DNA from: a virus
DNA length: 64,000 bases
Strand: one strand, 5' to 3'
IMG/VR virus record: IMGVR_UViG_3300017991_000003
Location: 96,001-160,000 of that record
Part shown: piece by piece, positions 2,193 through 63,842 of the stretch
Numbering within the stretch: the stretch's first letter is position 1
Layout: the number at the start of each line of letters is the position of its first letter
Made by a program: the position numbers and the translations under genes
Notes under the pieces: generated by a model
Seen by the model: only the letters and a program-made list of their open reading frames with translations
The model's database searches: none
Told to the model about the DNA's origin: nothing

Positions 2193-4247
2193 ATGCCCGA
2201 CCCCTATCCGAACCAGAACCAGGCGCTGTACGCCCTCCAGCAGCGGATCCAGGCCCAGCAGCAGCAGCAAATGCGGGCTGAGTCCATGGCCGTGGGGGGC
2301 ACGAACTCCATGGCCACTGAGTCCATGCGGGTCTCGATGATGCTGCAACAGCAGCAGCTTCAGCTCCAGATGCAGCAGCAGATGCAGCAGCTGCGCTCGT
2401 CCATGTACGGGACGTTCACGGCTGGGGCGGGCGCCGCATCCCCGGTCATGCGCCAGAACTTCGGCTCTCTGGTGATGGGGGCTGGGGTGGCTCGGGGCGT
2501 CAACACGATGACCGGCGGGCTCCTATACCCGGACTACAACTACCATTGGGGCCTCACCCGGGCTCGGATGGAGCAGGACGCGTCGGACGAGCTCCGTCAG
2601 CGGATGTTCAGCGATGTCGGGAACGAGTTGATCGCTGGCCTGGTCCCGGACGTGATCCGACGCCGGACCGGGGCGGCCTTCGCAGGCTCGAGGCCTGAGT
2701 TTGTGCGGGCAGCTTATGCTCGCTACTCCGGTTTGCGGGGCGGGGACGTGGCCGCGTTCGGCGGTGGAGGTAACGTTGACGGACCTGGTCTGCGATTGCG
2801 GGCTGACGCGACACAGAGCTCAGCGCGGGCGTTCGAGGCCGGGCTTTTGAACCTCAACCGCCGGCTTGGGTATGCCCTCGGTAGCGATGAGGTGAGCATG
2901 CTCCAGGACGTCACGGCAGGCCTCTCGGTCCACCAGGCCTTCCGAGGTCAGCGCGCTGGGGAGTCGGTCCTTGCCTCGGATAACCGCCAGGTTCAGAGCC
3001 TGATTAGCAGCATTCATGACCTGAGTCGTGCTCTCCAGCTGAACGTTGATCAAACGCGCGAGATGGTGAACATGGGCCGGCAGCACGGCTTGATGCCTAA
3101 CAGCTCGGCGTTCCAGGCTCTGGGAGCCATCGGCCAGGGCGGAAACCTGATCCAGATGAGCAACGCGGATCGGGCCCGGTACGCTATGCCGATCATGGCT
3201 CAGGCCCGCGGGATGGGCATGGACGCGGTCACCGCAGTCAACCGGCGGTTCGGTAGTGCGGAGGGCGTCCTAGGCCGCTACCGGGCTGGCCTCATGTCTG
3301 ATGCGCAGCTGTTCCGATTCGGCGGGACCAGTGAGGACGACGCCGCGATGCGCGTCGCGGAGTATCAAGAGCGGCTCGGTCTGGGATACGCCTCGCGGTT
3401 CGGAGGCAGTCTTGGGGCACTCTCCTATGCGGGGCAGTCTGTCGGAGGTGCTATCAGCACCGGGGCCCGGTTGGGTGCGGTTCTTGGATCCAACCCTCTG
3501 GCAGGTTTGCGTGCTTCTATGAGTGGGGCGGTGCGCTCGAACATGGCAGGCTCGATGCAGATGGATGCTTACGCCTATGCGCAGGATGCCTACCGCATCG
3601 GCGAATCGATTCAACCGGGCGGCGGTGAGGTACTTGCCGCTCGAGTATTCGGCCAGATGATCGGTGAGTCTGACCCGGTTCAGGCTATGAACATGTATCG
3701 GCAAATTGCCGGTGAGGTCGGCGCTGTCCAGCGTGGTACGTCGCTCAGTGGGGCAGAGTCTCTGCGGTTTGTCCGTACCCGTCGAATGATGCAGCAGGTG
3801 ACCGGCGAAGCCCCGGATATGTTGGATACAGCTAGGCTGTATCAATCTTTGGCGGGACGGGATGTGACCGCGGTGAGTGTTGCCCGGGCGCTAGCCCTCT
3901 CGGGAGCAGGCAGCAACACGCAGACGTCGCGCGAGTCTATCAACAGTGGCTATCGACAGGCGTCCGTGGATAAGTTCCGAAAGCTGATTACGGGACAGAC
4001 GGATCCGTCGCTCCTAGCCGTGATTGCCGAGATCTCCAACCTAGATGGGACGGGACTATCGGTGGATGTTCTTCAGGACATGGCCATCAACAAGAACAGC
4101 TCTGGGTGGAACACCGACGCTGTCAGTGTTCGGGAGCTCCTGACGATGGATCAGTTCCTCGGTAACTTTGGGAAGATCAACAAGAACCCAGACAAGCCCC
4201 CGAGCGGGACTGAGAACAATCCGATCTACGTGAAGACGGTGAGCTGA
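2193..4247 (+). CDS. large hypothetical protein (684 aa), poly-Q/M-rich N-terminus, G/A/S-rich; possible virion or morphogenesis protein
   Basis: ORF track; ATG 2193; long uninterrupted frame; function is a guess from size and composition only. Confidence 0.6.
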   Translation: MPDPYPNQNQALYALQQRIQAQQQQQMRAESMAVGGTNSMATESMRVSMMLQQQQLQLQMQQQMQQLRSSMYGTFTAGAGAASPVMRQNFGSLVMGAGVARGVNTMTGGLLYPDYNYHWGLTRARMEQDASDELRQRMFSDVGNELIAGLVPDVIRRRTGAAFAGSRPEFVRAAYARYSGLRGGDVAAFGGGGNVDGPGLRLRADATQSSARAFEAGLLNLNRRLGYALGSDEVSMLQDVTAGLSVHQAFRGQRAGESVLASDNRQVQSLISSIHDLSRALQLNVDQTREMVNMGRQHGLMPNSSAFQALGAIGQGGNLIQMSNADRARYAMPIMAQARGMGMDAVTAVNRRFGSAEGVLGRYRAGLMSDAQLFRFGGTSEDDAAMRVAEYQERLGLGYASRFGGSLGALSYAGQSVGGAISTGARLGAVLGSNPLAGLRASMSGAVRSNMAGSMQMDAYAYAQDAYRIGESIQPGGGEVLAARVFGQMIGESDPVQAMNMYRQIAGEVGAVQRGTSLSGAESLRFVRTRRMMQQVTGEAPDMLDTARLYQSLAGRDVTAVSVARALALSGAGSNTQTSRESINSGYRQASVDKFRKLITGQTDPSLLAVIAEISNLDGTGLSVDVLQDMAINKNSSGWNTDAVSVRELLTMDQFLGNFGKINKNPDKPPSGTENNPIYVKTVS

Positions 4248-4948
4248 TGGGGAGCATCGACGACGTCCTGTCTGGCACCGGCCCCGACGATACGGATCTG
4301 ACCCAGGGTCCGCAGGTGTCGAGCTCGGATGATTACGAGATCGTGCTTGGGTACGATCCTGCGGATTATCGCCACCTGGGTGCGGCGATGGGGGCGGAGT
4401 ACGACAAGGTCCCTGCCACGCTGGTAGTTCGCGACATCGGAGACGCGGCCACGGCGCAGGAAGGGATCATCGATGCAGCCAGCACAGCGTTGGCTCAAGT
4501 ACTGCCCTTCCCGCTCGGTCTGGTAGCTAATGCTGGGCTCGAGATCGCGCTCTCGCCGATCGTATTCATCACAGACAAGCTGATCCTTACCAGCGCGGTC
4601 GAGCCTCGCAGCGCCCGATCGGCTATGGTGATGAGCTTCAATCAGCCGACGGTCTACACGTCGGGCATGCAGCCCTACATTTTCCGGTACGCGGGTCACG
4701 TGTTGATCAACGAGCTGGATGGGGACGGGCGCAACCAGTTCTACGCTGCCTACCGGGAGTACCTGCGCGCCTCAGCTAGCCTGGTCGGGGCGGAGCGGCA
4801 GACCATGCCGTGGGTCGTAGAGCTCACCTTCCGAGATATGTTCCGCGCCGGGTATGTGGTCGACCTGTCGATGTCGATCAACGCAGCAGAGCCTAGCAAG
4901 GCTGACATCTCGTTCACCCTCTTCGTGATCGATGACCGGTTCTCCTGA
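4247..4948 (+). CDS. hypothetical protein (233 aa)
   Basis: ORF track; start overlaps upstream stop. Confidence 0.55.
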   Translation: MGSIDDVLSGTGPDDTDLTQGPQVSSSDDYEIVLGYDPADYRHLGAAMGAEYDKVPATLVVRDIGDAATAQEGIIDAASTALAQVLPFPLGLVANAGLEIALSPIVFITDKLILTSAVEPRSARSAMVMSFNQPTVYTSGMQPYIFRYAGHVLINELDGDGRNQFYAAYREYLRASASLVGAERQTMPWVVELTFRDMFRAGYVVDLSMSINAAEPSKADISFTLFVIDDRFS

Positions 4949-5502
4949 TGGCCTTTGAACCTCGAGACACCGAGCTGCGGGAGCGCTTCGGCGAACAGGC
5001 CCAGGAGCTCTACGAGGGCGACCGGGCGGCTGTCCGTGTCTTCCCCCTGGATGCGACAGGGGCTCTGGTTTTGACCAATCCGGTGGCCGAGTTCGATCAG
5101 CTCTTGATCGGACGAGTCGAGGAGCCGGATCGGGAGCGGGTGCAGTACAGCCAGTCGTTTGACGGCAACAAGCTCTACGCCTACGGCAACGATCACCGGG
5201 TCTATGCGATCTCCGCGGCCTTGCTCGATACGGACCTGGGGACGACGATTCAACCCCCATCAGGCAGCGAGGCGAGCGCGTGGGAAGGGCGCGGGCATCG
5301 TGACTGGGTGCAGTTCTTCGAGCAGTACGCTAGTCTGTGGGCATGCGCTCGGGATCGTCTGCTGGTCCAGCTGACCTACGGTCGGCGCCAAGTCTACGGG
5401 GCCTTCCTTGAGTCGACGCCCAACCTCGTGGCCTCAGCGCCGCACCGGCTGGATCTCCTGCTCTCCTTTTACGTGACCCACAGTCAGCCCATCGAGTTCT
5501 GA
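4948..5502 (+). CDS. hypothetical protein (184 aa)
   Basis: ORF track; start overlaps upstream stop. Confidence 0.55.
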   Translation: MAFEPRDTELRERFGEQAQELYEGDRAAVRVFPLDATGALVLTNPVAEFDQLLIGRVEEPDRERVQYSQSFDGNKLYAYGNDHRVYAISAALLDTDLGTTIQPPSGSEASAWEGRGHRDWVQFFEQYASLWACARDRLLVQLTYGRRQVYGAFLESTPNLVASAPHRLDLLLSFYVTHSQPIEF

Positions 5503-8500: not shown

Positions 8501-8981
8501 TGACGTGGCGGCAGCTGGTGGTGGGCAGGCCACGCCTTTCGAGTGGGCGCATCGGACGTTCCTCAAACGAGAGGCCACGAGCTTGGGGCAGTTCCTCGAG
8601 GATCACAAGCTCGAGCTCGTGACGCAGTTTGCCGACCGACCCACCACCAAGGAGTTCTATCAGATGCGTCCGGTCTCAGGATCGCAGACGACAACCGGAG
8701 CTGGGCTGGTATTCGACGATAGCCTCTTCAGTAAGCTGGTGGATGAGAAGAAGATGACCAACCCTGCATCCACTGTGGTTAGTGATGTTCTTGAGCAGGT
8801 TCTTCCTGGACCCTTCAACGCGGTGGCCGCCTCCGCGGTAGACGCGGCTTCAAGCGATCCATTGATCCAGGAGGCTCGAGAGCAGGCCACCAACAAGTAC
8901 CTGACCACTCAAGCACGGCAGGAGTTGATCCTGTCCTATGCCCGCAAGCACTTCGGCGACCGAGGTTTCGATGGCACGTGA
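5502..8981 (+). CDS. very large hypothetical protein (1159 aa); possible structural protein
   Basis: ORF track; 3.5-kb uninterrupted frame; no catalytic motif recognised. Confidence 0.65.
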   Translation: MTAETRAGLLASQWKIFLDGVEVPHHGFSMVMSQDQVSEVMLSLEPDKILLELRPQTMVHIFAKDRFPDPAPGQEDEEGGVQFAKTYTSDEDELKDTWHLFWEGVAAGRTHQKSKGNRSIQVRARALVESLERTPAFMMGMGGIEYSSIASGSRLPATVAGVIEGGGPSSVDTLSLFTLADLFTNDGETGSDVPGRDSATPRFAERLIRLITYLSSYNGVLRQHVVRGRLLNKIASIPDSILEGILERSVGLSLLGDMQNRITSRSSVLDIIRQVMSYGFYHLVQVPMPYRPSKQPEMGSMIPTLTGKQDEEQATAHQIPYEYYRNDYVFVPETYYALPPPCNFVFPDEMADLSIGREFQSEPTRHLVQDPHLASFVGNFFYWLAPEDIIRKAREGAGDDVTSANLFAMASTFGRSINVSGATSPYAYPDSADLESGSVRSLLGAVSDLELEKGIVPSFGQNRFEALAAAAYLSRTIPRTEDQATAQSIEDFANPENAAYADLMAAVANYQLQLMRYRRQGQVSMLGHRWIIPGLPTIIFDSDISYFGQVVSTTFVVNSDGQESTTLQLDRTRPVPKMEIEEIRAALEGLSTKLQELQTQKSKVADQALGQTISSALSGPLASQTTQYGGLGAKIEQTQSALQNWNTYIGGDTVDLVTTTGAPIQETLTIEGTQFDGTGLTTYFQDLSTEAAEIQAGLDELLVDGAAVAKALNTGEIAVGGSAFSTTLTKGDQTIYAAGNVSPAYLAYLFLDVPVLVDTTGQITAAKAALGDGFSVSGLKSALGSIVNGGASSDVFTGGEAPNTVAGALAVLTVAATYYELATAAIVEWLTIQKDIADSGENLDFLDLPPSTQAAADQSYKDQYQTIVDTLTNEIIEDGQKVLEDFDTRLDWPAPPAFFSEDLIATEKLDDLYQTSFGCKPFYTGPYTATATNETVAAIRASLTELDLGELETESGLSMQDRLEYYLEYLSGVSALNNVYPILEGQEELTDDVAPPPSWHDVAAAGGGQATPFEWAHRTFLKREATSLGQFLEDHKLELVTQFADRPTTKEFYQMRPVSGSQTTTGAGLVFDDSLFSKLVDEKKMTNPASTVVSDVLEQVLPGPFNAVAASAVDAASSDPLIQEAREQATNKYLTTQARQELILSYARKHFGDRGFDGT

Positions 8982-9711
8982 TACGACTGATCGGCCGAGT
9001 AAGGCCATCCGAGACGCCCGGAAGGATACCGATCTAGGTCTGGTAGAGCGGGCGCAGAAGGGCGACAAGGAGGCGCTGAACCGGCTGATCCGTAGCCACA
9101 TGGATCTGATCCAGATGAAGGCCCGCGGGTTCCGTAACGCCCCCATCCCAATCGCGGCGATCGAGGGTGAGGGTATGCGGCTTCTGGCTTTGGCGGTTAC
9201 CAAGTTCGACCCGTCCCAGGGTGTGGCCTTCCGCACGTTCCTCGACAACTACCTGCGCGGGCTCTACCGCTACGTCAACAGCAACAAGCGCGTGGACCGG
9301 GCGCCGGAGCACAGGCACCTGCGCTTCCACCGGTACGAGGCGGTCAAGGGCCTCCTGCGGGTGGAGCATAGTCGAGAGCCCACGGTGGCCGAGCTCTCCG
9401 ATGCGTTGGGCTGGAGCCCTACGGATGTGAAGCAGATGGACCGGATGATGTCCCAGCGTAGCCTGGCGGGCAGCGGCCTCGAGAACGTCAAGGCACTGGA
9501 CCAAGCGCACAGCCGGTACCAGGAGTCGGTTGAGCTGGCGTACGCGGGGTGGACCAAGCAGCAGCAGGCTGTCTACGATCTCAGCATGGGCGCGCACGGT
9601 AAGCAGCGCCTATCATCTGTGCCGGCCATCGCCCGCACCCTTGGGATCACGGCCGACAAGGTCTACAAGATCAAGCGGGAGCTGGCCCAGGAGCTTGGTA
9701 GTTCCCTATGA
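8971..9711 (+). CDS. sigma-70 family RNA polymerase sigma factor (phage-encoded)
   Basis: internal ATG at 8971 (GAGG 8 nt upstream) preferred over ORF-track start 8938; region-2-like LVERAQKGDKEALNRLIRSHMDLI...GMRLLALAVTKFDPSQGVAFRTFLDNYLRG and region-4-like HTH VPAIARTLGITADKVYKIKRELAQEL. Confidence 0.65.
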   Translation: MARDTTDRPSKAIRDARKDTDLGLVERAQKGDKEALNRLIRSHMDLIQMKARGFRNAPIPIAAIEGEGMRLLALAVTKFDPSQGVAFRTFLDNYLRGLYRYVNSNKRVDRAPEHRHLRFHRYEAVKGLLRVEHSREPTVAELSDALGWSPTDVKQMDRMMSQRSLAGSGLENVKALDQAHSRYQESVELAYAGWTKQQQAVYDLSMGAHGKQRLSSVPAIARTLGITADKVYKIKRELAQELGSSL

Positions 9712-13641: not shown

Positions 13642-14069
13642 CCGGCCGCCTGATCCTCCTGCTCACGCTCGTCAGCTGTGCGGTGTTTCAGCCGGACGAG
13701 CTGTCGATGACCTATGAGCGCGGCTTCGGCCACTATGATGCCGACCCCTGGGAGGCGCCGATCTCGGAGGATCAACACACGATCGGGTTCGGTTTGACGT
13801 GGTACATCGGTACCACAATGCCACCGGCTAGGGCTGCTGTTCTTCAGCCAGGCCTGCTCGAGGATGACGAGCCCCCTAAACCGGCCCCACCCCAGCCGCC
13901 CGCCAGTGTGGCACCGGCTACCAGTGCCACAGAGCCGTACAGCCCGGCCATGGATCGGGCCCTGATCTACCAGATCACCACGCTGCTCGGTGCGTTCGTG
14001 GTGGCTTACCAGAACCGTCAGCGCCTCCCAGGCGTGAAGAAGGCCTCGGACGAGGGGAGCGCTGAATGA
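13638..14069 (+). CDS. Pro-rich putative lipoprotein (143 aa)
   Basis: GTG start overlapping upstream stop (GTGA); signal peptide with lipobox LVSC; Pro-rich linker. Confidence 0.45.
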   Translation: MTGRLILLLTLVSCAVFQPDELSMTYERGFGHYDADPWEAPISEDQHTIGFGLTWYIGTTMPPARAAVLQPGLLEDDEPPKPAPPQPPASVAPATSATEPYSPAMDRALIYQITTLLGAFVVAYQNRQRLPGVKKASDEGSAE

Positions 14070-21981: not shown

Positions 21982-23907
21982 ATGCGTCCGCGCGCTTGGC
22001 TTACACTTTTGGACGTGGCTACGATCAAGAACACCCCGCAGAGCGAGCTCATCGAGAGCCAGACCTGTCCCTCGGCTCTCCAGGAGCTTGTGGACCTAGT
22101 AGATACCCAGCTGGAGACCGTCCTAGGGCCGCTGGGGTTCGATCTAGAGATCATCTACGCGGAGATCAAGGGCAAGCAGGCGGGGGATCTCTGGGACGCG
22201 GTGGTGACGGGCCCTCTCGAGGCGGCAGGCTCGGCGGTGGAGGAGGCGTTCGGATACGACCCGACGTCCATCTCAGCTAGTAAGGCGGAGATCGAGAACG
22301 CGCTCACGGCCATCGTGGATCCGAACAACATCCTGGCGGCCCTCACCCCAATCAAGGAACTAGGCGGGGCGCTCCTGTCTACGGACAAGCTGGTAGAGGG
22401 GGATCTGAGCCCTACGGGGCTGATCAACCAGATCCTGGACCCGACCAAGGAGAAGCAGCTCGACGGTCTTACCGAGTGCAATGAGAACGTGGTCACGGCC
22501 ACGGCGGCAACGATCACTCAGGTTGTAGCCGGTGCGGCTAACGAGGTGCTCAAGAAGGTGGGGGCAGCTCAGTCGATCCTCAGCATGGGTATGTCGCAGC
22601 TGGAGAACTTCGGCGAAGGCCTCTTCCTGCTCGCGGGAGACGCGCTGAACACGGTTCACAACGCTGAGATCATTCTTATCGACCAGATCCTCGACGTCCT
22701 CGTTGAGATGCGAGCGCTGGTGGAGGAGATGGGGAACGAGCCCTTCGGTTTCAACCACTCCAAGGTGGTGCAGGCGGCTCAGACCAACCTGCTCCAGGCG
22801 GACTCCCTCCTGTCGGCGGTCCAGGCAAAGATCGAGACTCGAGCGGGGTTTGACGGCACCTCCTACGACGCGGCTCGATCGATCATCCAGTACGTAGAGG
22901 AGCTCTTGTGCGAGGCGTCAGATGAGTTCGATCTCGGCTTTAGCTCGAAGCCGTATCGACTCCTGTCCCTGGTCTTGACCCTCGAGGCCTACCAGGCTCT
23001 CTGGTATGCCCGGGCTCAGAAAGGGGAGAGCAGCGCGGAGGGGTTGATCAGCTTCCCTGGCAGCCTGCTGAGCCAGCTCCAGACGGATAACTTCTTCTCC
23101 CCGATCATCGCTCTGGTTCGTTGCCAGTTGAACAAGGTGATCCAGGACATGGCGGATACGGACATCCGCGGCGAGCTCCTGCTCTACATCACCAAGGAGA
23201 AGAAGTGGTGCCTCGAGCTCAAGGTCCTGAACGAGACGATGAAAGCCTCGCGCAGCCTTCTTGAGGCGGGAGATGAGGCAGCCGAGTTCTCGGATCTGAT
23301 CCTGGAGGGTGTGGAGACCTACGAGGATACCAAGAAGCTGGTTACAGCTACCGCAGCCGAAGCGCAGGAAAGCATCACAGATGTCCTCACCTACGCACGA
23401 CTCAAGGTCCAGAACCAGTTGACCCCCACTAACCGAGTGACCTCTCGAATCGACGAGGCGGTATCCATCCTCACGCTTCGACGCTCTCAGATCCAGGCGC
23501 AGAGCCAGGCGCTCCTCAGCCTGCTCGGCTTGGGTAACACTGATTTCCTGCAAGGGCTGGCCTACGCCAAGCAGTTCGCAGAGTTCCTATCAGGCAAAGG
23601 CCTGGACGCCATGCTAGGGAGCCTACTTGACGGGGACTTCGACGGTGTCTTCGGGGCTGACGCCTTGACAGCCTCGATAGGCGGCAAGGTAGAGGCCTAC
23701 GCCACCAAGGTCCTCGGCTGTCTAGACACCCAGGACCCAAGCGCGACTGACAAGCTATACACAGTAGCAAAGCAGGCCAACGACGATCTTCGGGCCCAGG
23801 ACGTGCTCGTCAATCTCATCGACGGCTCTGCTTCGCTGTTTGCTCAGGGGGCGCTACTTGAGGCGCAAGAGCGCAGCGTCGACCTGAGCACGATCGAGCT
23901 AAGCTGA
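21982..23907 (+). CDS. large hypothetical protein (641 aa), L/A/E/Q-rich, probably alpha-helical
   Basis: ORF track; ATG 21982; palindromic element overlaps its stop. Confidence 0.6.
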   Translation: MRPRAWLTLLDVATIKNTPQSELIESQTCPSALQELVDLVDTQLETVLGPLGFDLEIIYAEIKGKQAGDLWDAVVTGPLEAAGSAVEEAFGYDPTSISASKAEIENALTAIVDPNNILAALTPIKELGGALLSTDKLVEGDLSPTGLINQILDPTKEKQLDGLTECNENVVTATAATITQVVAGAANEVLKKVGAAQSILSMGMSQLENFGEGLFLLAGDALNTVHNAEIILIDQILDVLVEMRALVEEMGNEPFGFNHSKVVQAAQTNLLQADSLLSAVQAKIETRAGFDGTSYDAARSIIQYVEELLCEASDEFDLGFSSKPYRLLSLVLTLEAYQALWYARAQKGESSAEGLISFPGSLLSQLQTDNFFSPIIALVRCQLNKVIQDMADTDIRGELLLYITKEKKWCLELKVLNETMKASRSLLEAGDEAAEFSDLILEGVETYEDTKKLVTATAAEAQESITDVLTYARLKVQNQLTPTNRVTSRIDEAVSILTLRRSQIQAQSQALLSLLGLGNTDFLQGLAYAKQFAEFLSGKGLDAMLGSLLDGDFDGVFGADALTASIGGKVEAYATKVLGCLDTQDPSATDKLYTVAKQANDDLRAQDVLVNLIDGSASLFAQGALLEAQERSVDLSTIELS

Positions 23908-23926
23908 CACTGGGAGGGAGTGTCAG
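23904..23926. repeat. palindromic element copy 2 (CTGACACT-GGGAGGG-AGTGTCAG)
   Basis: overlaps stop codons of the convergent genes 21982-23907 and thyX. Confidence 0.8.
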
Positions 23927-30863: not shown

Positions 30864-30865
30864 AG

Positions 30866-30888
30866 CTGGCACTGGCTAGGAGTGTCAG
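30866..30888. repeat. palindromic element copy 3 (CTGGCACT-GGCTAGG-AGTGTCAG)
   Basis: sits between a plus-strand and a minus-strand hairpin terminator at a convergent junction. Confidence 0.8.
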
Positions 30889-31286: not shown

Positions 31287-31305
31287 CTGGGTGGGTGGTG
31301 GTGAT

Positions 31306-31335
31306 GGTGTCTCCGGAGTAGACATCTCCGGATCA
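31306..31335 (-). promoter_or_regulatory. conserved 5' leader element with hairpin (stem TCCGGA/TCCGGA, loop GTAGACATC)
   Basis: aligns with the 46202 and 47869 copies; stem differs by a compensatory pair of substitutions. Confidence 0.55.
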
Positions 31336-31337
31336 CT

Positions 31338-31348
31338 AAACACATGCC
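31338..31348 (-). promoter_or_regulatory. promoter-like motif copy, variant (AAACACATGCC)
   Basis: 52 bp upstream of ATG 31286. Confidence 0.4.
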
Positions 31349-37003: not shown

Positions 37004-37090
37004 TGGTGCAGGAAGGGGGACTCGAACCCCCACGCCCGGGTGGGCACGTGGACCTAAACCACGGGCGTCTACCGATTCCGCCACTCCTGC
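37004..37090 (-). tRNA. tRNA-Leu (anticodon TAG)
   Basis: cloverleaf read by hand on minus strand: acceptor GCAGGAG/CTTCCTGC, anticodon loop TTTAGGT, long variable arm, T-arm GGGGGTTCGAGTCCCCC, encoded CCA. Confidence 0.8.
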
Positions 37091-37164: not shown

Positions 37165-37250
37165 TGGTGCGGGAGGAGGGACTCGAACCCTCACGCCCGA
37201 AGGCAGTGGATTTTGAATCCACCGTGTCTACCGATTCCAACCACCCCCGC
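37165..37250 (-). tRNA. tRNA-Leu (anticodon CAA)
   Basis: acceptor GCGGGGG/CTCCCGC, anticodon loop TTCAAAA, long variable arm, T-arm GAGGGTTCGAGTCCCTC, encoded CCA. Confidence 0.8.
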
Positions 37251-39541: not shown

Positions 39542-39543
39542 GT

Positions 39544-39566
39544 GTGGCACTGGCTAGGAGTGTCAG
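39544..39566. repeat. palindromic element copy 4 (gTGGCACT-GGCTAGG-AGTGTCAG)
   Basis: divergent region; immediately 5' of ATG 39541 (minus) and just upstream of a TTGACA hexamer preceding the GroES-like gene. Confidence 0.75.
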
Positions 39567-43289: not shown

Positions 43290-43987
43290 ATGCGTATGCC
43301 ATCACGCTCTTCGGTAACGAGACCAGCACCCAGAGCGTTGACAAGCTCTTTGAGTCCCATGTGGCGCTTGAGCAGCATTTCGATCTGATCCGCTTCCCGG
43401 CCATCACTCCTGACCAGAACCAGGAGATCATGGCGGAGGAGCGCCTGGTGTGGACCTATCCCTGGGAAAACAACCGGCTGGATGGGATCACTGGCTTGAA
43501 GCTGCATCCCTACGCCACACGTGATCGGGGTGCGCGGATCGCCTGCTTCCTATCGCACTACCACCTCTGGAAGCTGGCCTGCGAGACTGGGGAGTGGGTG
43601 ATGATCCTGGAGGACGACACGGTATTCACCAAGCACCTAGACCTAGACAGCCTGCCTTACCGTGAGTGGAGCGCCGTCGGCATCAACAACCCACTAGGGG
43701 CGACGCGTCGAGCGCCTGTGTTCCACGACAAGGTCGTGGCGCAGCGTCCGACTCCGATCATCGAGACCCCGTGGGTTGATGATGAAGTCAGGACCCCGCA
43801 GGGGCTGGCCGGCCACAGTGCCTACATGATCAGCCCTGAGCTGGCTAAGGACCTGATCCATCGAGCCCGTCATGCGGGTTGCTGGCCTAACGACGCATTG
43901 ATGTGCAAGCAGCTGTACCCTGGGAAGCTCGGGGTCACAACCGAGTTCTACACCCGAGTCCAGCAGACCCCGAGTACTCTGGCATGA
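43286..43987 (+). CDS. glycosyltransferase family 25-like
   Basis: GTG start (GTGA overlap); ACFLSHYHLWK and ILEDDTVF motifs. Confidence 0.5.
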   Translation: MNAYAITLFGNETSTQSVDKLFESHVALEQHFDLIRFPAITPDQNQEIMAEERLVWTYPWENNRLDGITGLKLHPYATRDRGARIACFLSHYHLWKLACETGEWVMILEDDTVFTKHLDLDSLPYREWSAVGINNPLGATRRAPVFHDKVVAQRPTPIIETPWVDDEVRTPQGLAGHSAYMISPELAKDLIHRARHAGCWPNDALMCKQLYPGKLGVTTEFYTRVQQTPSTLA

Positions 43988-44646
43988 AGGCGCGCGTCAT
44001 CACCCTGATCCACAACAAGCGATCTGTTCAGGTAGCGAATCGGTGCATTGAGAGCGCTGCAAGGTTCGGCGTTGAGGTTGATATCTTCCCGGCCATCAGG
44101 GCGGCGGATAACCCCAAGGCCCTGATGTTCGAGCGGAAGTTCTCGATGAAGGGGTTTGAGGACAATGAGTACTCGCGTCTTGAGCCGTGCCTGGCTACGT
44201 TCCTCTCCCACTCTCGCCTATGGGAGCTTGCGGTGCTGCTAAAGGAGGCAGTCCTGATCCTCGAGCACGACGCTGTGTTCCAGGCTCCGCTCCCGGAGAT
44301 GATCGAGGAGCGGGTGAAGATGCTCTGCAATCTGGGCAAACCGAGCTTCGGCTCCTTCAAGACCCCGAAAGAGGGGCTAGGCCCGTTCGTGTCCAAGCCC
44401 GGCGGCTATCTAGGCGGCGCCCACGCGTACCTGGTCCAGCCTGAGGCCGCTGAGGTGATGTTGGAGAAGGCCAAGACAGAGGCGGAGCCGGCCGATGTGT
44501 TCATCCAGAAGAAGCGCTTCCCCTGGATGACTGAGTACTACCCGTGGCCGGTGATCTGCGATGACTCCTTCTCCACCATCCAGAAGCCCGCAGGTTGCAC
44601 GGCCAAGCACAACAAGGTCGAGATCATCGATCAGGATGAATCGTGA
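43984..44646 (+). CDS. glycosyltransferase family 25-like (paralogue of previous)
   Basis: ATG 43984 in ATGA overlap; ATFLSHSRLWE and ILEHDAVF. Confidence 0.5.
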   Translation: MKARVITLIHNKRSVQVANRCIESAARFGVEVDIFPAIRAADNPKALMFERKFSMKGFEDNEYSRLEPCLATFLSHSRLWELAVLLKEAVLILEHDAVFQAPLPEMIEERVKMLCNLGKPSFGSFKTPKEGLGPFVSKPGGYLGGAHAYLVQPEAAEVMLEKAKTEAEPADVFIQKKRFPWMTEYYPWPVICDDSFSTIQKPAGCTAKHNKVEIIDQDES

Positions 44647-44879
44647 GGCTGCTAAGTCGCGCCTACTGGGCGGAGGTCGTCGAGTGCGACTACTGCCCTA
44701 ATCCTGAAGAACCGCCCGCGCTTGTTTGTGGTGTCTGCGGCGATACGGGGAAAGCCCCGCGATGGCGTCGGGCTTGGCGCGATGTCTTCCGGTGTAGTGC
44801 TCTGGTGGGCCATCCTGATAGGAGCCCTGCTTGTGGGGGCGTTGGCTCAGTAAAAACAACGCGTTGTTTTGTCGGGTAG
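44643..44879 (+). CDS. questionable Cys-rich small ORF
   Basis: ORF track; reads through an AT-rich palindrome; may be non-coding. Confidence 0.2.
   Translation: MRLLSRAYWAEVVECDYCPNPEEPPALVCGVCGDTGKAPRWRRAWRDVFRCSALVGHPDRSPACGGVGSVKTTRCFVG
44853..44870. repeat. AT-rich perfect palindrome AAAACAACGCGTTGTTTT
   Basis: stands out in GC-rich context; convergent junction between the glycan island and the HTH operon. Confidence 0.7.
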
Positions 44880-44885
44880 GTAGCT

Positions 44886-44901
44886 AAAACAACGTGTTGT
44901 T
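44886..44901. repeat. AT-rich near-palindrome AAAACAACGTGTTGTT
   Basis: second copy 33 bp from the first. Confidence 0.65.
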
Positions 44902-44939
44902 AGGCACCCCAGCGCCCGAGGGCGCCGGGGGCCTGGTTC

Positions 44940-45197
44940 TCAGGGGCGGAGCCGCAGCCCCCGAGAGGTGACCAGCACCTTACGGTGCGGGACCTTGGGG
45001 AGCTTCGGCAGGGGCGGGAGGTCGACGTCGGTGTCGACGACCGCCTCCACCAGGGACTCGCCGTCCGCCCCGCTGATGTGGAGGCGGCGGTGCTCGCTGT
45101 TCTCGGTCACGTGGACCGAGCCCAGCGGGGTTTTGACCTTGGCGATGGTTCGCTCGGGGGCGATCCACGCCAAGATCTCGTCGAAGAACCCCATCAC
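44940..45197 (-). CDS. hypothetical protein (85 aa)
   Basis: ORF track; last gene of a 5-gene overlapping operon. Confidence 0.4.
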   Translation of the reverse strand: MMGFFDEILAWIAPERTIAKVKTPLGSVHVTENSEHRRLHISGADGESLVEAVVDTDVDLPPLPKLPKVPHRKVLVTSRGLRLRP

Positions 45198-45376
45198 TTG
45201 CAGAGCAGCGGGTTCTTCCCCCGCTGCTTGATGCGGCGCACCCTCGCGCGGAGGGTGTGCTCGATGGAGAGGGGCTGCCCGCGGAGGCGGGAGGTGACGG
45301 CGATGTCTAGGCCGCGCATGGGGGAGATCTTCCCCCGGCGGACCTTGAGCATCACCTGGCGACTGAGATTGCTCAT
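45194..45376 (-). CDS. hypothetical basic protein (60 aa)
   Basis: ORF track; overlapping start/stop. Confidence 0.4.
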   Translation of the reverse strand: MSNLSRQVMLKVRRGKISPMRGLDIAVTSRLRGQPLSIEHTLRARVRRIKQRGKNPLLCK

Positions 45377-45573
45377 GTGGTCAGGTGGTCGGCGAAGGCC
45401 CAGGTGACGGCCTCCGCGAAGTTGGGGGTGAGGGTGGCGTAGCCCGTCTCTACGTGGGAGACGTGGGACTGACTGAACCCGATACGCGCAGCGAACTGCG
45501 CTTGGGACAGGCCCAGCCCCTTCCTGATCCAGCGGACCAGGCGGGGGCTGAGCTCGACGGTGGTGGCGATCAC
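45373..45573 (-). CDS. XRE-family helix-turn-helix transcriptional regulator
   Basis: LGLSQAQFAARIGFSQSHVSHVETG HTH pattern. Confidence 0.6.
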   Translation of the reverse strand: MIATTVELSPRLVRWIRKGLGLSQAQFAARIGFSQSHVSHVETGYATLTPNFAEAVTWAFADHLTT

Positions 45574-45857
45574 GACGCCTCCTCCGCGTCCGCCCAGGCT
45601 CGGGCGATCTGACGCATGGGAGCCCTCTGGGAGAGGGGCCGGACGGTCACGAGAGTGATGAGACGCTTGTGGCCGATCGTGATGAGCGGCTGCTCGTAGC
45701 CGCCCCGCGAGGCGGCCTCACGCACCTTCTTTTTGAAGGTGGTGAGCTGCGGGCTGTGAGCAGGCAGGCCGATCAGGGATTGACCTACTTCCTCGAACAC
45801 CTCGCAGATGACCTCGGGCATGAGGGGCCGCAGCGGTTCTCGCATGGGGTTCTTCAT
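45570..45857 (-). CDS. hypothetical protein (95 aa)
   Basis: C-terminal protein-like part of a longer R-rich ORF; internal ATG 45857 in ATGA overlap. Confidence 0.4.
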   Translation of the reverse strand: MKNPMREPLRPLMPEVICEVFEEVGQSLIGLPAHSPQLTTFKKKVREAASRGGYEQPLITIGHKRLITLVTVRPLSQRAPMRQIARAWADAEEAS

Positions 45858-46198
45858 CGGATCTCGAACCCCAGCTTTTCGGCGAGTTCGACCGTGGCGG
45901 TGCGGCTCGTGTGGTGGCGGGAGAACGCCACCTCGCCGGTGGCGAGGTCCACGTACCAGCGGTTGCCGCCGCCAATGCCGTAGATCGTCACGTGACCGGA
46001 CTGGCCACGCATACGCAGGGCGTGGCCCCACGTGTATTGAGAGGACTCGGGGTCCTCGATGGAGTCCATCTGGCTCAGGAGCCAGGCGACCCCGTTTGCG
46101 TCGCGGCGCTCCTCGTCGTAGGTCGACGAGAAGCCCTCGACTTCTGCCATGTCGATGAGCGTCTCGGCGCTCATGATACGACCGGTCAGGGTGGTCAT
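45854..46198 (-). CDS. hypothetical protein (114 aa), first gene of operon
   Basis: ORF track; ATG 46198 directly abutting the conserved 42-bp leader cassette. Confidence 0.5.
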   Translation of the reverse strand: MTTLTGRIMSAETLIDMAEVEGFSSTYDEERRDANGVAWLLSQMDSIEDPESSQYTWGHALRMRGQSGHVTIYGIGGGNRWYVDLATGEVAFSRHHTSRTATVELAEKLGFEIR

Positions 46199-46201
46199 GG
46201 T

Positions 46202-46243
46202 GTTGGGTGGTGAGGGTGTCTCCGGGTAGACATCCCCGGATCA
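46202..46243 (-). promoter_or_regulatory. 42-bp leader cassette GTTGGGTGGTGAGGGTGTCTCCGGGTAGACATCCCCGGATCA with hairpin
   Basis: identical over 42 bp to 47869-47910; abuts start codon. Confidence 0.6.
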
Positions 46244-46245
46244 TT

Positions 46246-46256
46246 AGACTTATGCC
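46246..46256 (-). promoter_or_regulatory. promoter-like motif copy (AGACTTATGCC)
   Basis: 48 bp upstream of ATG 46198. Confidence 0.5.
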
Positions 46257-46357
46257 CTAACCTCTCCCCCTCCTGGCGCTTTTGGTCCATACTGGGGGCA
46301 CAACTTGACGCCCTTCGGGGCCGTCTCCCACGGATAACACAACTCCAGGAGAAGAGC

Positions 46358-47062
46358 ATGCTGCTCAACAACTTCAGCGTCCGCGTGCCTGAGGGACGCG
46401 AGCACCACCAGTACGTGGAGCTCCAGCACGACACCAAGTACAGCCTCGTCCTCGCCAACAAGAACACCGAGGACTGCGACGCCCGGGTAGAGATCGATGG
46501 GCAGGCTGTTGGGACCTGGCGGATCAAGGCCAAGTCCACGGTCCGGCTCGAGAGGCCGGTTGACTCGGAGGGTAGGTTTACCTTCTACAAACAAGGCACC
46601 GAGGAGGCGAGCAAGGCTCAGCTCGAGGCAGTCGGCGAGGACAAGCTCGGCCTGGTCTGCGTGTGGTTCACCCCGGCTAAGCGACAGCAGGTACCGCAGT
46701 GGATCAGTACCCCGCAGTGGGGCAGTCACTACCCGTCGCCTACGCCCCCGCCGATCCCCTTGGATTACCAAGTCGACTGCAACACGATCCAGACGGCTTT
46801 CTTCTGCGCGAGCTCTGCGGATATGCCTTCGATGAGCCAGAAGAGCGTGGGCTCGATCACGCGAGAGGCGCGCCTTATGTCTTCAGGAGGCACGGGCCTC
46901 TCGGGTAAGAGCACACAGCAGTTCGTTGAGGCTCAAGAGCTCGACCTAGACATGGATCGACAGACCTTCATCGCCCTGCGCCTCGTGTGCGTGGAGAAGG
47001 AGGAGTCGGACATCCGTCCTCTGGTGCAGCGAGCCACCCCTGTACCGCCGCCCCTGAAGTGA
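46358..47062 (+). CDS. hypothetical protein (234 aa)
   Basis: ATG 46358 with AGGAGAAGAG upstream. Confidence 0.55.
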   Translation: MLLNNFSVRVPEGREHHQYVELQHDTKYSLVLANKNTEDCDARVEIDGQAVGTWRIKAKSTVRLERPVDSEGRFTFYKQGTEEASKAQLEAVGEDKLGLVCVWFTPAKRQQVPQWISTPQWGSHYPSPTPPPIPLDYQVDCNTIQTAFFCASSADMPSMSQKSVGSITREARLMSSGGTGLSGKSTQQFVEAQELDLDMDRQTFIALRLVCVEKEESDIRPLVQRATPVPPPLK

Positions 47063-47076
47063 GGCAAAAAAGAAGG

Positions 47077-47099
47077 CTGGCACTGGCTCCCAGTGTCAG
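47077..47099. repeat. palindromic element copy 5 (CTGGCACTGG-CTC-CCAGTGTCAG); likely also a bidirectional terminator
   Basis: flanked by AAAAAAGAAGG upstream and TCTTCTTCT downstream at a convergent junction. Confidence 0.75.
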
Positions 47100-47114
47100 T
47101 CTTCTTCTCGCGGC

Positions 47115-47483
47115 TCACTCGGAGACGGCTCCAGCGGCTCGCATGGCCAGCGAGTGCAGGTAGTCGTACCGGTCCTTGAAGACATCGAAGGCCACAGTGC
47201 GGAGCTCGGCCTGGACCCAGGTGGCGTACTCGACCGGCGGTTCTTTCTGGATCAGCTCTTCAACGATCTCCCGAGGGAGGTAGGCGATGATCCAGTTCAT
47301 GTCGTCCACGCGTCCCCCAGATCCCGGAGGTCCGAAGCCCAGCTGGTGCACAGCGTACTGAGCGCTTTCGATGAAGTCCTCGGGAACGTCGAAGTCGTCT
47401 CGCCGGCCAGCAGCGAGCACCATGGCGGCCCAAGCCGCGTGGATACCTTGCCGGTACCCGCGCAGGTATTCGTCTTTAGTCAT
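47115..47483 (-). CDS. hypothetical protein (122 aa)
   Basis: ORF track. Confidence 0.5.
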   Translation of the reverse strand: MTKDEYLRGYRQGIHAAWAAMVLAAGRRDDFDVPEDFIESAQYAVHQLGFGPPGSGGRVDDMNWIIAYLPREIVEELIQKEPPVEYATWVQAELRTVAFDVFKDRYDYLHSLAMRAAGAVSE

Positions 47484-47868
47484 GGTTAGGAGGGGTTTGG
47501 CAGGTCTGGTAGATGCGGGCCATCTGGTCGAGCGCCGTCAACCGGATGGTGATGATCTTGCGGGCCACGTTTGCGACGGTCGCGCCACTGCCCTGCCGCA
47601 TCGACAGCTTGTGCGGCCGGGTCTGAAGGAGCTCAACGAGGTCCGTGTGAGCGAGGCGCTCGCGGAGGTCGGTGACGTACTCCGTGAGGAAGCCCTGAAG
47701 CTCCCCCGGCGGGTTGGCGGTCAGGACTGCCTTGGCCCTCGTGGGCGCGGTCCCGTCGAGCTGGCTCTGGAGGCGATCCCCGAAGGGAATCTGGGAGACC
47801 AGCTCGGCCCAGAGCCAGTCCCGGGCCAGGACCGCTGCCTGGCTGTAGATCTTGTCGGCGTGCTTCAT
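47476..47868 (-). CDS. hypothetical protein (130 aa), first gene of operon
   Basis: ATG 47868 abutting the conserved 42-bp leader cassette. Confidence 0.5.
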   Translation of the reverse strand: MKHADKIYSQAAVLARDWLWAELVSQIPFGDRLQSQLDGTAPTRAKAVLTANPPGELQGFLTEYVTDLRERLAHTDLVELLQTRPHKLSMRQGSGATVANVARKIITIRLTALDQMARIYQTCQTPPNHD

Positions 47869-47910
47869 GTTGGGTGGTGAGGGTGTCTCCGGGTAGACAT
47901 CCCCGGATCA
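47869..47910 (-). promoter_or_regulatory. 42-bp leader cassette, second identical copy
   Basis: identical to 46202-46243. Confidence 0.6.
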
Positions 47911-47912
47911 AA

Positions 47913-47923
47913 GGACTCATGAC
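47913..47923 (-). promoter_or_regulatory. promoter-like motif copy (GGACTCATGAC)
   Basis: 45 bp upstream of ATG 47868. Confidence 0.5.
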
Positions 47924-48050
47924 AGACCCAAGAGATGGGTTTGGCCCGCTAGTCCCTGGCACACATCCCGGCCTAGGCCCTAGACTTAGGACGAACCCTA
48001 AGGGCTCTTTCTGGGCCCCAAGTCCCCTTCTAACCGGATCCTGAGACACC

Positions 48051-49805: not shown

Positions 49806-52800
49806 ATGGCTGAGTTCAAGGACTGCCAGAGCCCGAGCCCCCTGACCGGGCGGATCGGCCCCGATCTGATCGAAGAGGTTGGCGGGGTCTCTCTGGCAGG
49901 TGTGTTGGCAGGCACGGAGACGCTGCCGGTTGGTGCAATCCCTGTCACAGCCCCGCTTTATGACAGTCCGAGCCCTACAGGTACGGCTATTGGACTGCGG
50001 TTGGATTCGAGCCTGACGGTTGATGCCCAGGGCCGGCTCAGTATTGCTGGAGCCCCATCGCCCGCGGCCCACGCCTCGAGCCACGAGCCTGGCGGGTCTG
50101 ATCCGATCACCCCTGCTGCCTTTGACGGGCTTATCACCCCGCCGGTCGCCACGACGGTTGTCCTTGGCGGTGTCAAGGACGGTGACGGCGTCTCGATCGC
50201 CGGTGACGGCACCCTGACCCTCGATCTGGCCGCCGCCAGTGGCCTCGAGATCAGCGGCGGGACCCTGAGACTGGCACTGGGTACCGGTGTCAGCTTCAGC
50301 GGCAACGATCTGGTCCTGGACGAGGCCACGGACTCCACGCTGGGCGGCATCATCGCCGGCACGGGTCTATCAGTCAGCTCGGGTACGGCGAGCCTCAACG
50401 CCCCCCAAGTCACGGGAGCCTCCCTAGCGGGCAGCACTCTGGTCTGGGATACCAGCCCGAGTGCCCAGAGTCCCAGCCCTGCTCTGAGGCTTCCGGCGAG
50501 CTTCACGTACACCAAGGCGATCCCGCAGTCGCAGCTGCCGACCGCGGCCTACGGCAGCCCGGGCAGCTCGAGCCCCAGCCCGCAGCTCGGCCTTGTCCGC
50601 ATCTATGGCCCGAGCGAGGGCCTGACGCTTAGCGATGGGCTCCTGTCGCTGGCGACTCCGATCAGCACGGATCACCTACCCACCGCTACTGGTCTAGGTG
50701 GGCGAGGCATCGTCCGCGCGGGCCTACTTGACGGTACGGGCGTCTACGTCTCCAACAGTACGACCGGCCAGCTGGCGATCCTGATTGACGCCACGTCGGA
50801 CACGTTGGCGTTGTCGTCGAGCGGGATCAAGGTCAAGTCCAATCGCTTCCTGGCGCTGACTGGCACCGGTAACCTCCCCAGCCCCGCGGCGAGCCCGAGC
50901 CCGGGGACTGACGGCTGGATGACCGGGTCGGTTCGATTCACCAACGACCTGGGTGAGCCTGCGATCCGCACCGGTAACCAGCGGATCCGCTACGAGTTCG
51001 GGGCCAGCCCGTCTCCCGGGGCGATCCTGGCATCGGCTGATCTAAGCGATCTACTAACGTACCAGGAGATCAGCACACTCATCTCCCAGGCTGAGCTTGG
51101 TGTCGAGGTTTGGACTCCTGGGCGACCTGTGCAGGCAGAGCCGGGTACGAGCCTAGGTGCGTTGGCGGAGCTCTCGGCCGGGGATCGGTTCCTTACGAGC
51201 ACGTCGTCCAACACCAACCCCGGCGGTGACTGGAATGCGCACAACTGCGTGTTCGCGGTCTGGACGGAAACGGCTCCCGATACCTTTACCTGGGTCTATG
51301 AGACCCCCACGGTCAACACCTGGTTCACAGACGACGTAACTGGGGACACGTGGGCTGTTGTTGTCGGCTCCCCCTCCCCGAAGTCGCCCTCACCGAACCC
51401 GTCGCGAGAGGCTTTCCGGTATCGCGCTCGTCAAGATGACACAGCATCGACGGCCCGAGCTGGTCGCGTGCGTGTCCCGACGACCAGTGGCCTCGTCATG
51501 GACGGCGAGGATATTCGGCTATCCCTCGCCTCGGACATCGGGGTCAGTACGGGCCTGCGTCTGATCACCCGAGCTCGCAACAACGCGCTAGCTCTCGATC
51601 TCAGCCGGTCCCAAGGGATCTTGGAGCTCAACTCCGACGGGCGCCTTCAGGTTGCCGCGTCCTCGATCCAGGCCACGGAGATCGCGGACAACACCATCGT
51701 CCTCGACAACCTGGCCGCGGATCAGGTGACAGGCGGTACCAAAGACTTCATCGCCACGCAGTACGACGGGCTATCCGTCCGGCTGGTGGGGGACTCGGAA
51801 GACTTCCGCGTCACTGGGGCGCCTGTCAGCACGGCTACGACCATTCTGATCCACACCGAGGACGGTATCGGTGTGGCGGAGGAGTCGATCAACACTGACG
51901 CTCTCTCGGACGAGGCGGTTAGCTACAGCAAACTCCTGATGCCCACGGCCTCCGGTCTGGAGGACAACGGGCAGGACAAGGTCCGGGTCAAGCTCCAGAC
52001 CCGCAGCGGCCTCGAGCGAACGGTGGATGGCCTGGCGGTCAACATCCATGACGTGGTGGACGATGCCACGATTGAGCTCGACACATCCACGGGCGGCTTG
52101 CGCGTCAAGACAGGTAGCCTGACGTCGTCGTACTTCGCGTCGGGCCTGGCGATCTCGGCCTCGGTCCTCACGCTGGGAGCCCCTATGCTCTCGTCGAGCG
52201 GGCTCCTGACCTTCTGCTACCAGAGCCCTCTGGTCCTGACCGGCAGCCCCGGCTGCTTGACGATCGGCGAAGGCTTGATCAGCTCGCCGTATCTCGGCAC
52301 CGGGTCGGTCAGCTACGCCAAGCTCAAGCTGGCGAGCCCCTCCGGCATCACGCAGACGGCCGGCGGTATCAAGGTCGACATCTCGACGGGTCTCGCCTTC
52401 AGCGGCAACCAGATCGTGGTCGACCAGGTGCCGGCAGACGCGATGGCACTGGATGCGGATTCGGCGTTGTACGCCGCTAGCCCGACCAGTCCGCTGACGC
52501 AGCTGGAGCTGAGCATCCGGGTCAGCAGCCCGTTCACGCAGACGGGTGGTACGCTGGATCTAGCGGACGAGGGTGTTCAGGTGAGTCACCTGGATCGCTC
52601 CAAGCTGCGCGGTAGCTTCCTGGCCAGCGGCCTCGAGGCCGGCCTAGGTACCCAGACCAGTCCCTTCGACTCTTGGGTCACGAGCCCGGCGTTCTACACC
52701 GGCTCGGACGCCCCGGGTATGCGGGTGGCTACGCGGACGCGATCCGATCACGACTACCTGGATGCGGCGGGTCAGGGACAAGGCACGTTCGAGCCCTATA

Positions 52801-63802: not shown

Positions 63803-63819
63803 ACGGACGCCTGCTCTAT

Positions 63820-63842
63820 CTGGCACTGGTACCTAGTGTCAG
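63820..63842. repeat. palindromic element copy 6 (CTGGCACT-GGTACCT-AGTGTCAG)
   Basis: overlaps stop of the HTH gene 63839-63988 and abuts the promoter-like motif of the next gene. Confidence 0.8.

Follow-up and report, generated by a model that had tools for sequence, protein, structure and literature searches.

The phages CTXphi and GIL01 carry operators for the host repressor LexA, and in phage 434 both Cro and the repressor bind ACAA-N6-TTGT. The described system that comes closest to the site reported here is the gene PDC-S01 (domains AAA_14/PF13173 and DUF4143/PF13635, COG1373). DUF4143 is a PD-(D/E)XK nuclease domain (PMC3424549), and PDC-S01 is reported to rank fourth in frequency among the candidate defence genes of prokaryotes and to be unvalidated (PMC12988326). 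We analysed a pair of AT-rich dyads in a 64,000-nucleotide stretch of the IMG/VR virus record IMGVR_UViG_3300017991_000003 (positions 96,001 to 160,000; below, the window, in whose numbering positions are given) and also read 14.5 kb of extra flanks, which together makes 78.5 kb of an element of 175-193 kb. By sequence and geometry, the pair belongs to a dyad family which is linked to PDC-S01 and lies at promoter-operator positions in bacteria, and in the window it stands without the gene or the promoter. We think it rather likely that the pair is an orphan PDC-S01-type tandem operator that was probably acquired by recombination.

The dyad pair and its bacterial counterparts

The preliminary description of the window had reported two AT-rich palindromes in a GC-rich, convergent intergenic region between the end of a glycan island and the end of a helix-turn-helix (HTH) operon. 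The sequences, positions and 33-bp spacing (start to start) of the two were all confirmed (Table 1), and so was the location, with stop codons at 44646 (+) and 44940 (-) flanking the pair. Dyad 2 is identical to dyad 1 at 15 of 16 positions, the sole change being a central C to T, and the GC content around the dyads is 0.38 versus about 0.61-0.62 for the window. The perfect 18-bp palindrome alone is unremarkable, with a simulated mean of 0.37 per 64-kb window. When the 15-mer was searched with up to 3 mismatches, the two dyads were the only good matches in the window (shuffle mean 0.58 matches) and one further match was a lone 3-mismatch site at 57787. What exceeds chance is the recurrence of an AT-rich 16-mer in a sequence of 62% GC, not the lone palindrome.

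We scanned public genomes and metagenomes with the pattern ACAACGNGTTGT-N(10-40)-ACAACGNGTTGT and recovered at least 98 loci from genomes and over 120 from metagenomes, the proportions among which are those of a sample and not of a census. By chance we would presumably expect about one match, a figure that is our own rough estimate and not computed by a tool. The commonest gap among the loci retrieved was 21 bp (54 occurrences), which corresponds to the 33-bp period of the window. In this class the flanks also match the window and give the consensus rAAACAACGCGTTGTTTy. At least seven bacterial phyla (Spirochaetota, Desulfobacterota, Myxococcota, Planctomycetota, Verrucomicrobiota, Firmicutes and Fibrobacterota) have the extended dyad, rAAACAACGNGTTGTTTy, as pairs or as arrays whose period is 32-33 bp, with arrays of up to seven dyads at a 33-bp period (L191). 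The spacer sequence is not conserved among the bacterial pairs. Most loci hold a single pair or array per fetched stretch (up to 8 kb) and one has an extra solo dyad (L070). The exact-match scan of IMG/VR returned no core-dyad pair, which makes the window the only instance on a virus-like contig; two matches to the exact 18-mer in IMG/VR were rejected as unrelated low-GC chance hits.

The same core was also seen in repeat families with different flanks, namely GTCATCACAACGTGTTGTGTCATC arrays with a 50-bp period, dense dispersed CTACAACGCGTTGTAG palindromes, and CGACAACGAGTTGTCGGTTTGG arrays with 25- and 34-bp periods. The loci of these families include L022, L055, L059 and L088 (Flavobacteriales), L115, L117 and L167 (Ga0209365 and similar contigs), and L037, L045 and L085 (a Planctomycetaceae metagenome-assembled genome, MAG).

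Clustering of the open reading frames (ORFs) next to the dyad loci revealed only one recurrent family, a protein of about 460 aa with the Pfam domains AAA_14 and DUF4143, and its gene matches the PADLOC candidate defence gene PDC-S01 with E-values of 1e-125 to 1e-145. The linkage was tallied on 45 loci with the A/T-flanked dyad class, 43 of which were assessable, as two lie at a locus edge. The gene starts 2-114 nt past the proximal dyad and points away from it in 32/45 loci and is linked at a distance of 250 nt in one more; two pairs are fused to a C-terminal gene fragment and eight are orphans. Because the dyad recurs directly upstream of PDC-S01 genes, often in the promoter spacer, it is marked as a DNA-level protein-binding site. 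Of the 33 linked loci, 10 have the hexamer TTGACA immediately adjoining the proximal dyad and one more has TTGACG, with a -10-like hexamer 16-18 nt further on, and in about 14/33 the hexamer pair scores 9-12/12. The clearest sigma-70-like examples with the dyad as spacer are TTGACA-16-TATAAT (L047) and TTGACA-16-TATGAT (L113). A dyad that fills such a putative promoter spacer is in the classical position of an operator.

Of 15 inspected loci from distant clades of PDC-S01 on viral and prophage contigs of IMG/VR (27-35% identity), most show tandem repeats peculiar to them upstream of the gene, often at a period of about 33 bp, and tandem sites upstream of the gene therefore look like a general feature of the PDC-S01 family. 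These repeats (loci L234-L266) lie mostly about 200 nt upstream of position 3001, and examples are four copies of TTATTTCTCGGATTTGAGTA.. with a 33-bp period (L238/L264), two copies of AAATGTGTAACGTCTACACATTT (L247), and GGACATGATGTCC dyads (L236/L265). The presence of the dyad in PDC-S01 promoters together with the clade-specific repeats implies sequence-specific DNA binding and makes autoregulation probable.

We propose that the two rAAACAACGNGTTGTTTy dyads would form a tandem protein-binding site that acts on the level of DNA. A distance of 33 bp is close to three helical turns and would place two dimers on the same face of the helix. In bacteria the pair would be the promoter-operator of one clade of genes for AAA_14 + DUF4143 ATPase/PD-(D/E)XK nucleases. 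The most economical candidate for the binder is the ATPase itself, since it is the only gene that travels with the dyads across phyla, and it may in this way regulate its own gene. Our literature search found no paper containing the motif and no functional work on DUF4143 or COG1373, and the dyad site family appears to be undescribed in the searchable literature.

The orphan pair and its possible binders

We scored the window pair with R1, a sequence-only model of 24 bacterial pairs that are linked to the gene, which gave 48.1 bits (E 2e-13) on the + strand and 46.7 bits in the other orientation. This slightly favours the + strand, with the CGCG dyad and its TTTTGTC as the 'distal' and the CGTG dyad as the 'proximal' member. 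The CGTG centre occurs also in gene-linked bacterial pairs (L089, L049, L143, L227), and 21-22 nt of the dyad 1 region are exactly identical to L033, L084 and L098. The likeness to the tandem dyads upstream of PDC-S01 thus covers the dyad sequence rAAACAACGNGTTGTTTy including its A/T flanks, the 33-bp period within the bacterial range of 32-33 bp, the CGCG distal dyad with the TTTTGTC that follows it, and the proximal dyad with a variant centre. A chance local duplication, unrelated to the bacterial sites and without function, is extremely unlikely in the face of this likeness. A single 18-bp palindrome is not rare and the region is a recombination hot spot, but the match takes in flanks and centre variants as well as the 33-bp spacing (48 bits and E 2e-13 with R1) and includes the 21-22 nt of exact identity with gene-linked sites.

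A scan for further copies had been suggested in the preliminary description. Run over the 78.5 kb, it gave no additional dyad pair, as R1 found none in the rest of the window, in the extra flanks or in the relatives of the element. A REP- or MITE-like dispersed element would be present in many copies, and here there is a single locus in 78.5 kb.

The window differs from the bacterial operators in what follows the dyads. In bacteria the PDC-S01 gene starts downstream of the proximal dyad at a distance of up to about 120 nt, rarely 250 nt, and the window has no such gene; tblastn (E<=1e-3) gave no match to the ATPase gene or a remnant of it in the window, nor did the six-frame hidden Markov model (HMM) search give any below E 0.77, and none of the called genes of the extra 14.5 kb contains AAA_14 or DUF4143. 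At the position where the ATPase would be expected to start, there is only the GC-rich hairpin, a likely terminator, and the 3' end of the converging 84-aa gene. Nor is there an embedded promoter with -35 and -10 elements, as the best hexamer pair around dyad 2 reaches 5-6/12 with no A2/T6 and the sigma-70 scan of 43500-46500 found nothing. We consider the pair an orphan because it has no ATPase gene or remnant, no promoter hexamers and no homology to the bacterial loci past the dyads.

Orphan or decayed pairs were found in bacteria as well, where orphans are no rarity (orphans L027, L029, L038/L095, L051, L075, L098 and L105). They resemble the window in having an intact pair with no gene, in an intergenic position by the 3' end of an unrelated gene (ligA, infC, fapA and TPR genes), and at a partly degenerate three-dyad site outside the 45-locus tally (L040) an apparent terminator hairpin follows too, judged by eye without folding. 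These orphans are chromosomal, whereas the carrier of the window pair is a large phage-like element whose relatives have no such pair. In L070 and L184 the pair is fused to the last 50-70 or so codons of a decayed ATPase gene. At the L070 locus (positions 3560-5210, a Kofleriaceae MAG), a PhD/VapC-like toxin-antitoxin cassette has on either side a copy of the end of an AlkB-like gene together with one dyad, and it adjoins three dyads fused to a C-terminal PDC-S01 fragment, a snapshot of rearrangement.

Of the options raised in the preliminary description, that of an operator stands, as the same pair lies upstream of PDC-S01 genes across phyla, but the phage HTH protein proposed as its partner does not, being an orphan that never co-occurs with the motif. 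Under this alternative, the pair would be the operator for the element's own 66-aa Xre/Cro-type protein, a dimer of which would bind each ACAA-N4-TTGT dyad and block readthrough or control a local transcript. The HTH_3 gene is 470 bp away in the converging operon, both it and the dyads are missing from the relatives, and on inspection the half-site ACAA/TTGT is like that of the 434 operators and a Gln appears to be retained in the recognition helix where 434 has Gln28. As in the 434/lambda Cro-cI operators, which are bound by HTH_3 proteins, there are short ACAA...TTGT dyads in several copies in helical phase with a small HTH_3 gene nearby. Unlike these operators, which have a 6-bp centre, lie at a repressor-controlled promoter and travel together with their gene, the window dyads have a 4-bp centre and lie off any promoter, at the 3' end of the operon. 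Moreover, the motif is missing from the region upstream of the operon (46199-46357) and from the promoter of the HTH gene itself, and the protein has no homologue anywhere (none among 5.8 billion proteins) and is absent from the 218 motif-bearing loci, where the ATPase is the consistent partner. We regard control by this HTH protein as unlikely.

The surroundings of the pair are consistent with gain by exchange. Relatives of the second GT25 protein (52-61% identity) are encoded on other contigs of 50-180 kb, which share the glycan island and, downstream, a module of an 80-90-aa and a 134-aa gene with those for a DUF5661 protein and a protein of about 1250 aa. Between these two they have differing leftward cassettes or none, and they have no dyads. 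The slot, which runs from the second GT25 gene to the conserved 80-90-aa gene (44647-48050 in the window), contains 8 genes here, 3-4 in one group of relatives (L005-L008), 2-3 in another (L009-L012) and none in L013-L015. Judged from these comparisons, the slot is a hypervariable cassette site and an exchange hot spot. Because the relatives have no dyads and the 84-aa and HTH proteins have no homologues, the dyads are placed in this slot and outside the conserved core of the lineage. A phylogenetic footprint of the pair is impossible, as the closest relatives carry other cassettes and no pair; in IMG/VR, the second GT25 protein and a 224-aa ORF as queries gave no protein-based relatives. The phage-like element probably gained the pair by recombination with DNA of a PDC-S01 locus, or it may since have lost the gene.

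Several points weigh against an acquired orphan operator. The loci were fished with a pattern derived from the window, so the match of the core is built in and its identity is circular; evidence independent of it comes from the consensus of the flanks, the predominance of the 33-bp class, the linkage to the ATPase and the promoter setting. The binder is inferred from linkage, and a search of solved structures for a DNA-binding domain of the ATPase gave P-loop matches only. The flanks do not document a transfer, as exact identity of the window region with the bacterial loci reaches 22 nt at most. An old relic would not quite be expected to keep both dyads and the distance between them wholly intact, as is the case here. 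The absence of the ATPase gene holds for 78.5 kb of the 175-193 kb element, and the phage nature of the carrier is only probable (sigma factor, exonuclease, tRNAs and mostly ORFans, with no match to a cultured phage).

An orphan operator may be a neutral relic or a site that still binds a PDC-S01-type protein of the host, and we consider the relic somewhat more likely. Any present action of the pair would consist in the binding of such a host-made protein (titration or roadblock) and not in the formation of a terminator. More specific functions are conceivable: the pair might be a DNA decoy which, once amplified by replication, titrates or mislocalises the host PDC-S01 ATPase-nuclease, a recognition sequence for that protein on the phage, or the empty target of a selfish, homing-like unit of PDC-S01 and dyads. 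We hold such a functional orphan to be rather unlikely. The LexA boxes of CTXphi and GIL01 offer a parallel in that a mobile element bears the binding site of a host-encoded DNA-binding protein, which here is putative. However, those boxes overlap a phage promoter and have a proven regulatory role, and the window pair has no evident promoter.

Terminator and origin readings of the junction

The preliminary description had also considered the dyads as a bidirectional terminator. Like intrinsic bidirectional terminators, they lie between convergent genes and show the layout of A-tract, dyad and T-tract. An intrinsic terminator has a stable GC-rich stem-loop followed directly by a U-tract, and the dyads form none. 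Their stem is AU-rich and weak (7 bp, -3.7 kcal/mol) and fails the terminator consensus scan, which found 0 terminator-like sites. The single dyads fold at -3.7 and -3.9 kcal/mol, and 64/200 and 47/200 shuffles, respectively, fold equally well. A separate GC-rich hairpin lies alongside, which suits the role better. It folds at -25.8 kcal/mol on the + strand and at -32.0 kcal/mol on the - strand (z -5.15), with a weak U-tract, and from the predicted folds it is likely to act as a bidirectional terminator or an RNA 3' stabiliser of the convergent operons. The relatives have a single GC-rich inverted repeat at the equivalent junction, as judged by eye without folding. The annotation of the window is corrected by this result, in that the terminator would be the GC-rich hairpin beside the dyads and not the dyads themselves.

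A different family of hairpins, CTGRCACTGG-loop-..AGTGYCAG, has 8 copies in the window (Table 1), several of which lie at gene ends or convergent junctions, for example the copy at 47076 between the ends of a 234-aa and a 122-aa gene. It is probably the usual terminator-like or processing signal of the element, and is absent from the 44.9-kb junction.

The pair could also act on the level of RNA. The two arms are able to pair, giving an AU-rich hairpin of 17 bp, which with the GC-rich hairpin would make a compound bidirectional terminator or protect 3' ends. This long hairpin folds at -20.9 kcal/mol (+) and -17.3 kcal/mol (-), with z of about -3.6 to -3.9, lies exactly between the convergent genes and begins where a stop codon may lie. 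However, the same fold arises from any directly repeated palindrome, so the hairpin comes free. Since a plain hairpin needs no self-complementary arms, the dyad symmetry indicates a dimeric DNA-binding protein. Further, the single dyads match shuffles and the scan found no terminator-like site, the bacterial pairs lie upstream of or within promoters and are not transcribed as a 3' end, and both the CTGRCACTGG hairpins of the element and the inverted repeat of the relatives look unlike the pair. The region has no match in Rfam. An RNA element thus has, in our judgement, a low probability.

An origin element, the third option of the preliminary description, found no support. A replication origin, a partition (centromere-like) site or a recombination site would agree with the AT-rich island and the repeated dyads in helical phase, and some bacteria have iteron-like arrays of up to 7 copies (L191, L160). 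Iterons and parS sites come as several repeats next to an initiator or partition gene and are conserved in relatives. Here there are only two copies with no other in 78.5 kb, no rep, par or integrase gene is adjacent, the cumulative GC skew does not turn at the pair, and the relatives have no pair though an origin should be conserved, all of which makes such a site very unlikely.

Some other identities were rejected on inspection. These were NrdR boxes, parS, LacI-type and LexA boxes, as well as an integron attC, for which GTTAGGC beside dyad 2 fits GTTRRRY but an inverse core site and an integrase are missing.

Surroundings of the pair and meaning for PDC-S01

The flanking genes were placed using third-position GC content (GC3) and gene calls on two independent, identical assemblies, JGI 3300018080 Ga0180433_10001560 (38 kb) and ENA ERZ27256773 k141_2423138 (174,660 bp). 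The rightward glycan island contains a weak sulfotransferase-like match, two methyltransferases and two GT25 glycosyltransferases, and the leftward operon consists of 114-, 95-, 66- (HTH_3), 60- and 84-aa genes. The 84-aa protein has no homologues among 5.8 billion proteins. In the 293 bp which separate the GT25 stop from that of the 84-aa gene, no gene was called on either assembly.

Table 1. Positions of the dyads, neighbouring genes and repeats in the window
Feature	Position	Strand	Remarks
Second GT25 glycosyltransferase gene	43984-44646	+	final called gene of the rightward glycan-modification island
Uncalled 78-aa ORF	44643-44879	+	CxxC...CxxC motif; crosses dyad 1; doubtful gene
Alternative 23-aa hydrophobic ORF	44782-44853	+	MSSGVVLWWAILIGALLVGALAQ, then stop; inside ORF 44722-44853; candidate only
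Dyad 1	44853-44870	none	AAAACAACGCGTTGTTTT; perfect 18-bp palindrome; resembles 'distal' dyad of bacterial pairs
Spacer	44871-44885	none	GTCGGGTAGGTAGCT; 15 bp, yields the 33-bp period
Dyad 2	44886-44901	none	AAAACAACGTGTTGTT; resembles 'proximal' dyad of bacterial pairs
GC-rich hairpin	44902-44934	none	abuts dyad 2; 5 nt from the stop of the 84-aa gene
84-aa orphan gene	44940-45194	-	last of the leftward operon; converges on the dyads
66-aa HTH_3/Xre-type protein	45373-45573	-	same leftward operon; binder proposed in the preliminary description
Phage-type sigma factor	8938-9711		
Tandem tRNA-Leu genes	37004-37090, 37165-37250	-	anticodons TAG and CAA
CTGRCACTGG hairpins	2163-2186, 13907-13930, 23903-23926, 30865-30888, 39543-39566, 47076-47099, 50270-50293, 63819-63842		8 copies
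Leader TTGGGTGGTGAGGGTGTCTCCGGGTAGACATCCCCGGATCA	46203-46243, 47870-47910	-	identical 41-mers
Leader TTGGGTGGTGAGGGTGTCTCCGGGTAGACATCCCCGGATCA, weaker copy	31293-31346		

The questionable ORF that the preliminary description had noted does exist and passes through dyad 1, and we still consider it doubtful. It starts with a GTG that overlaps the stop of the GT25 gene (GTGA), with AGGA 6 nt upstream. Its GC3 is low, it was left uncalled by the gene callers on two independent contigs, and among 1.84 billion representatives it had no real homologue, the single match being a low-complexity Cys-repeat artefact. In the frame of the alternative 23-aa ORF the GC3 is 0.70, and its TAA stop opens the A-tract of dyad 1. 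The different frames of the two small ORFs are not due to a frameshift error, because the sequence is the same in both assemblies.

The pair is carried by a large, almost all-ORFan element (contigs of 175-193 kb). It has a sigma factor of phage type, an exonuclease and two genes for tRNA-Leu, while most of its other genes are ORFans with no match in Pfam or PHROG. Searches of cultured-phage databases gave no match, be it with the region (megablast, blastn), with 25 kb of the window (megablast) or with a 1262-aa protein (tblastn). The carrier is probably a large uncultivated phage. The left-hand flank, close to the window, has genes for a reverse transcriptase (RVT_1) and a ThiF-like protein (L271:7101-8204 and 3206-3940), and the right-hand flank, equally close, has a 3406-aa ORF (L274:1-3092). 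Two leftward operons have the repeated leader TTGGGTGGTGAGGGTGTCTCCGGGTAGACATCCCCGGATCA directly ahead of their start codons on the - strand; the leader contains a CCGGGG...CCCGG hairpin and is probably a shared promoter or 5'-UTR (untranslated region) element.

For PDC-S01, the finding is a conserved cross-phylum tandem dyad in the promoter of one clade, with clade-specific repeats in the same place elsewhere. If the decoy, recognition or homing possibility were true, it would give the first mechanistic handle on this candidate defence gene. The intact orphan on a phage-like element raises the question of whether mobile elements acquire, exploit or suffer from such sites.

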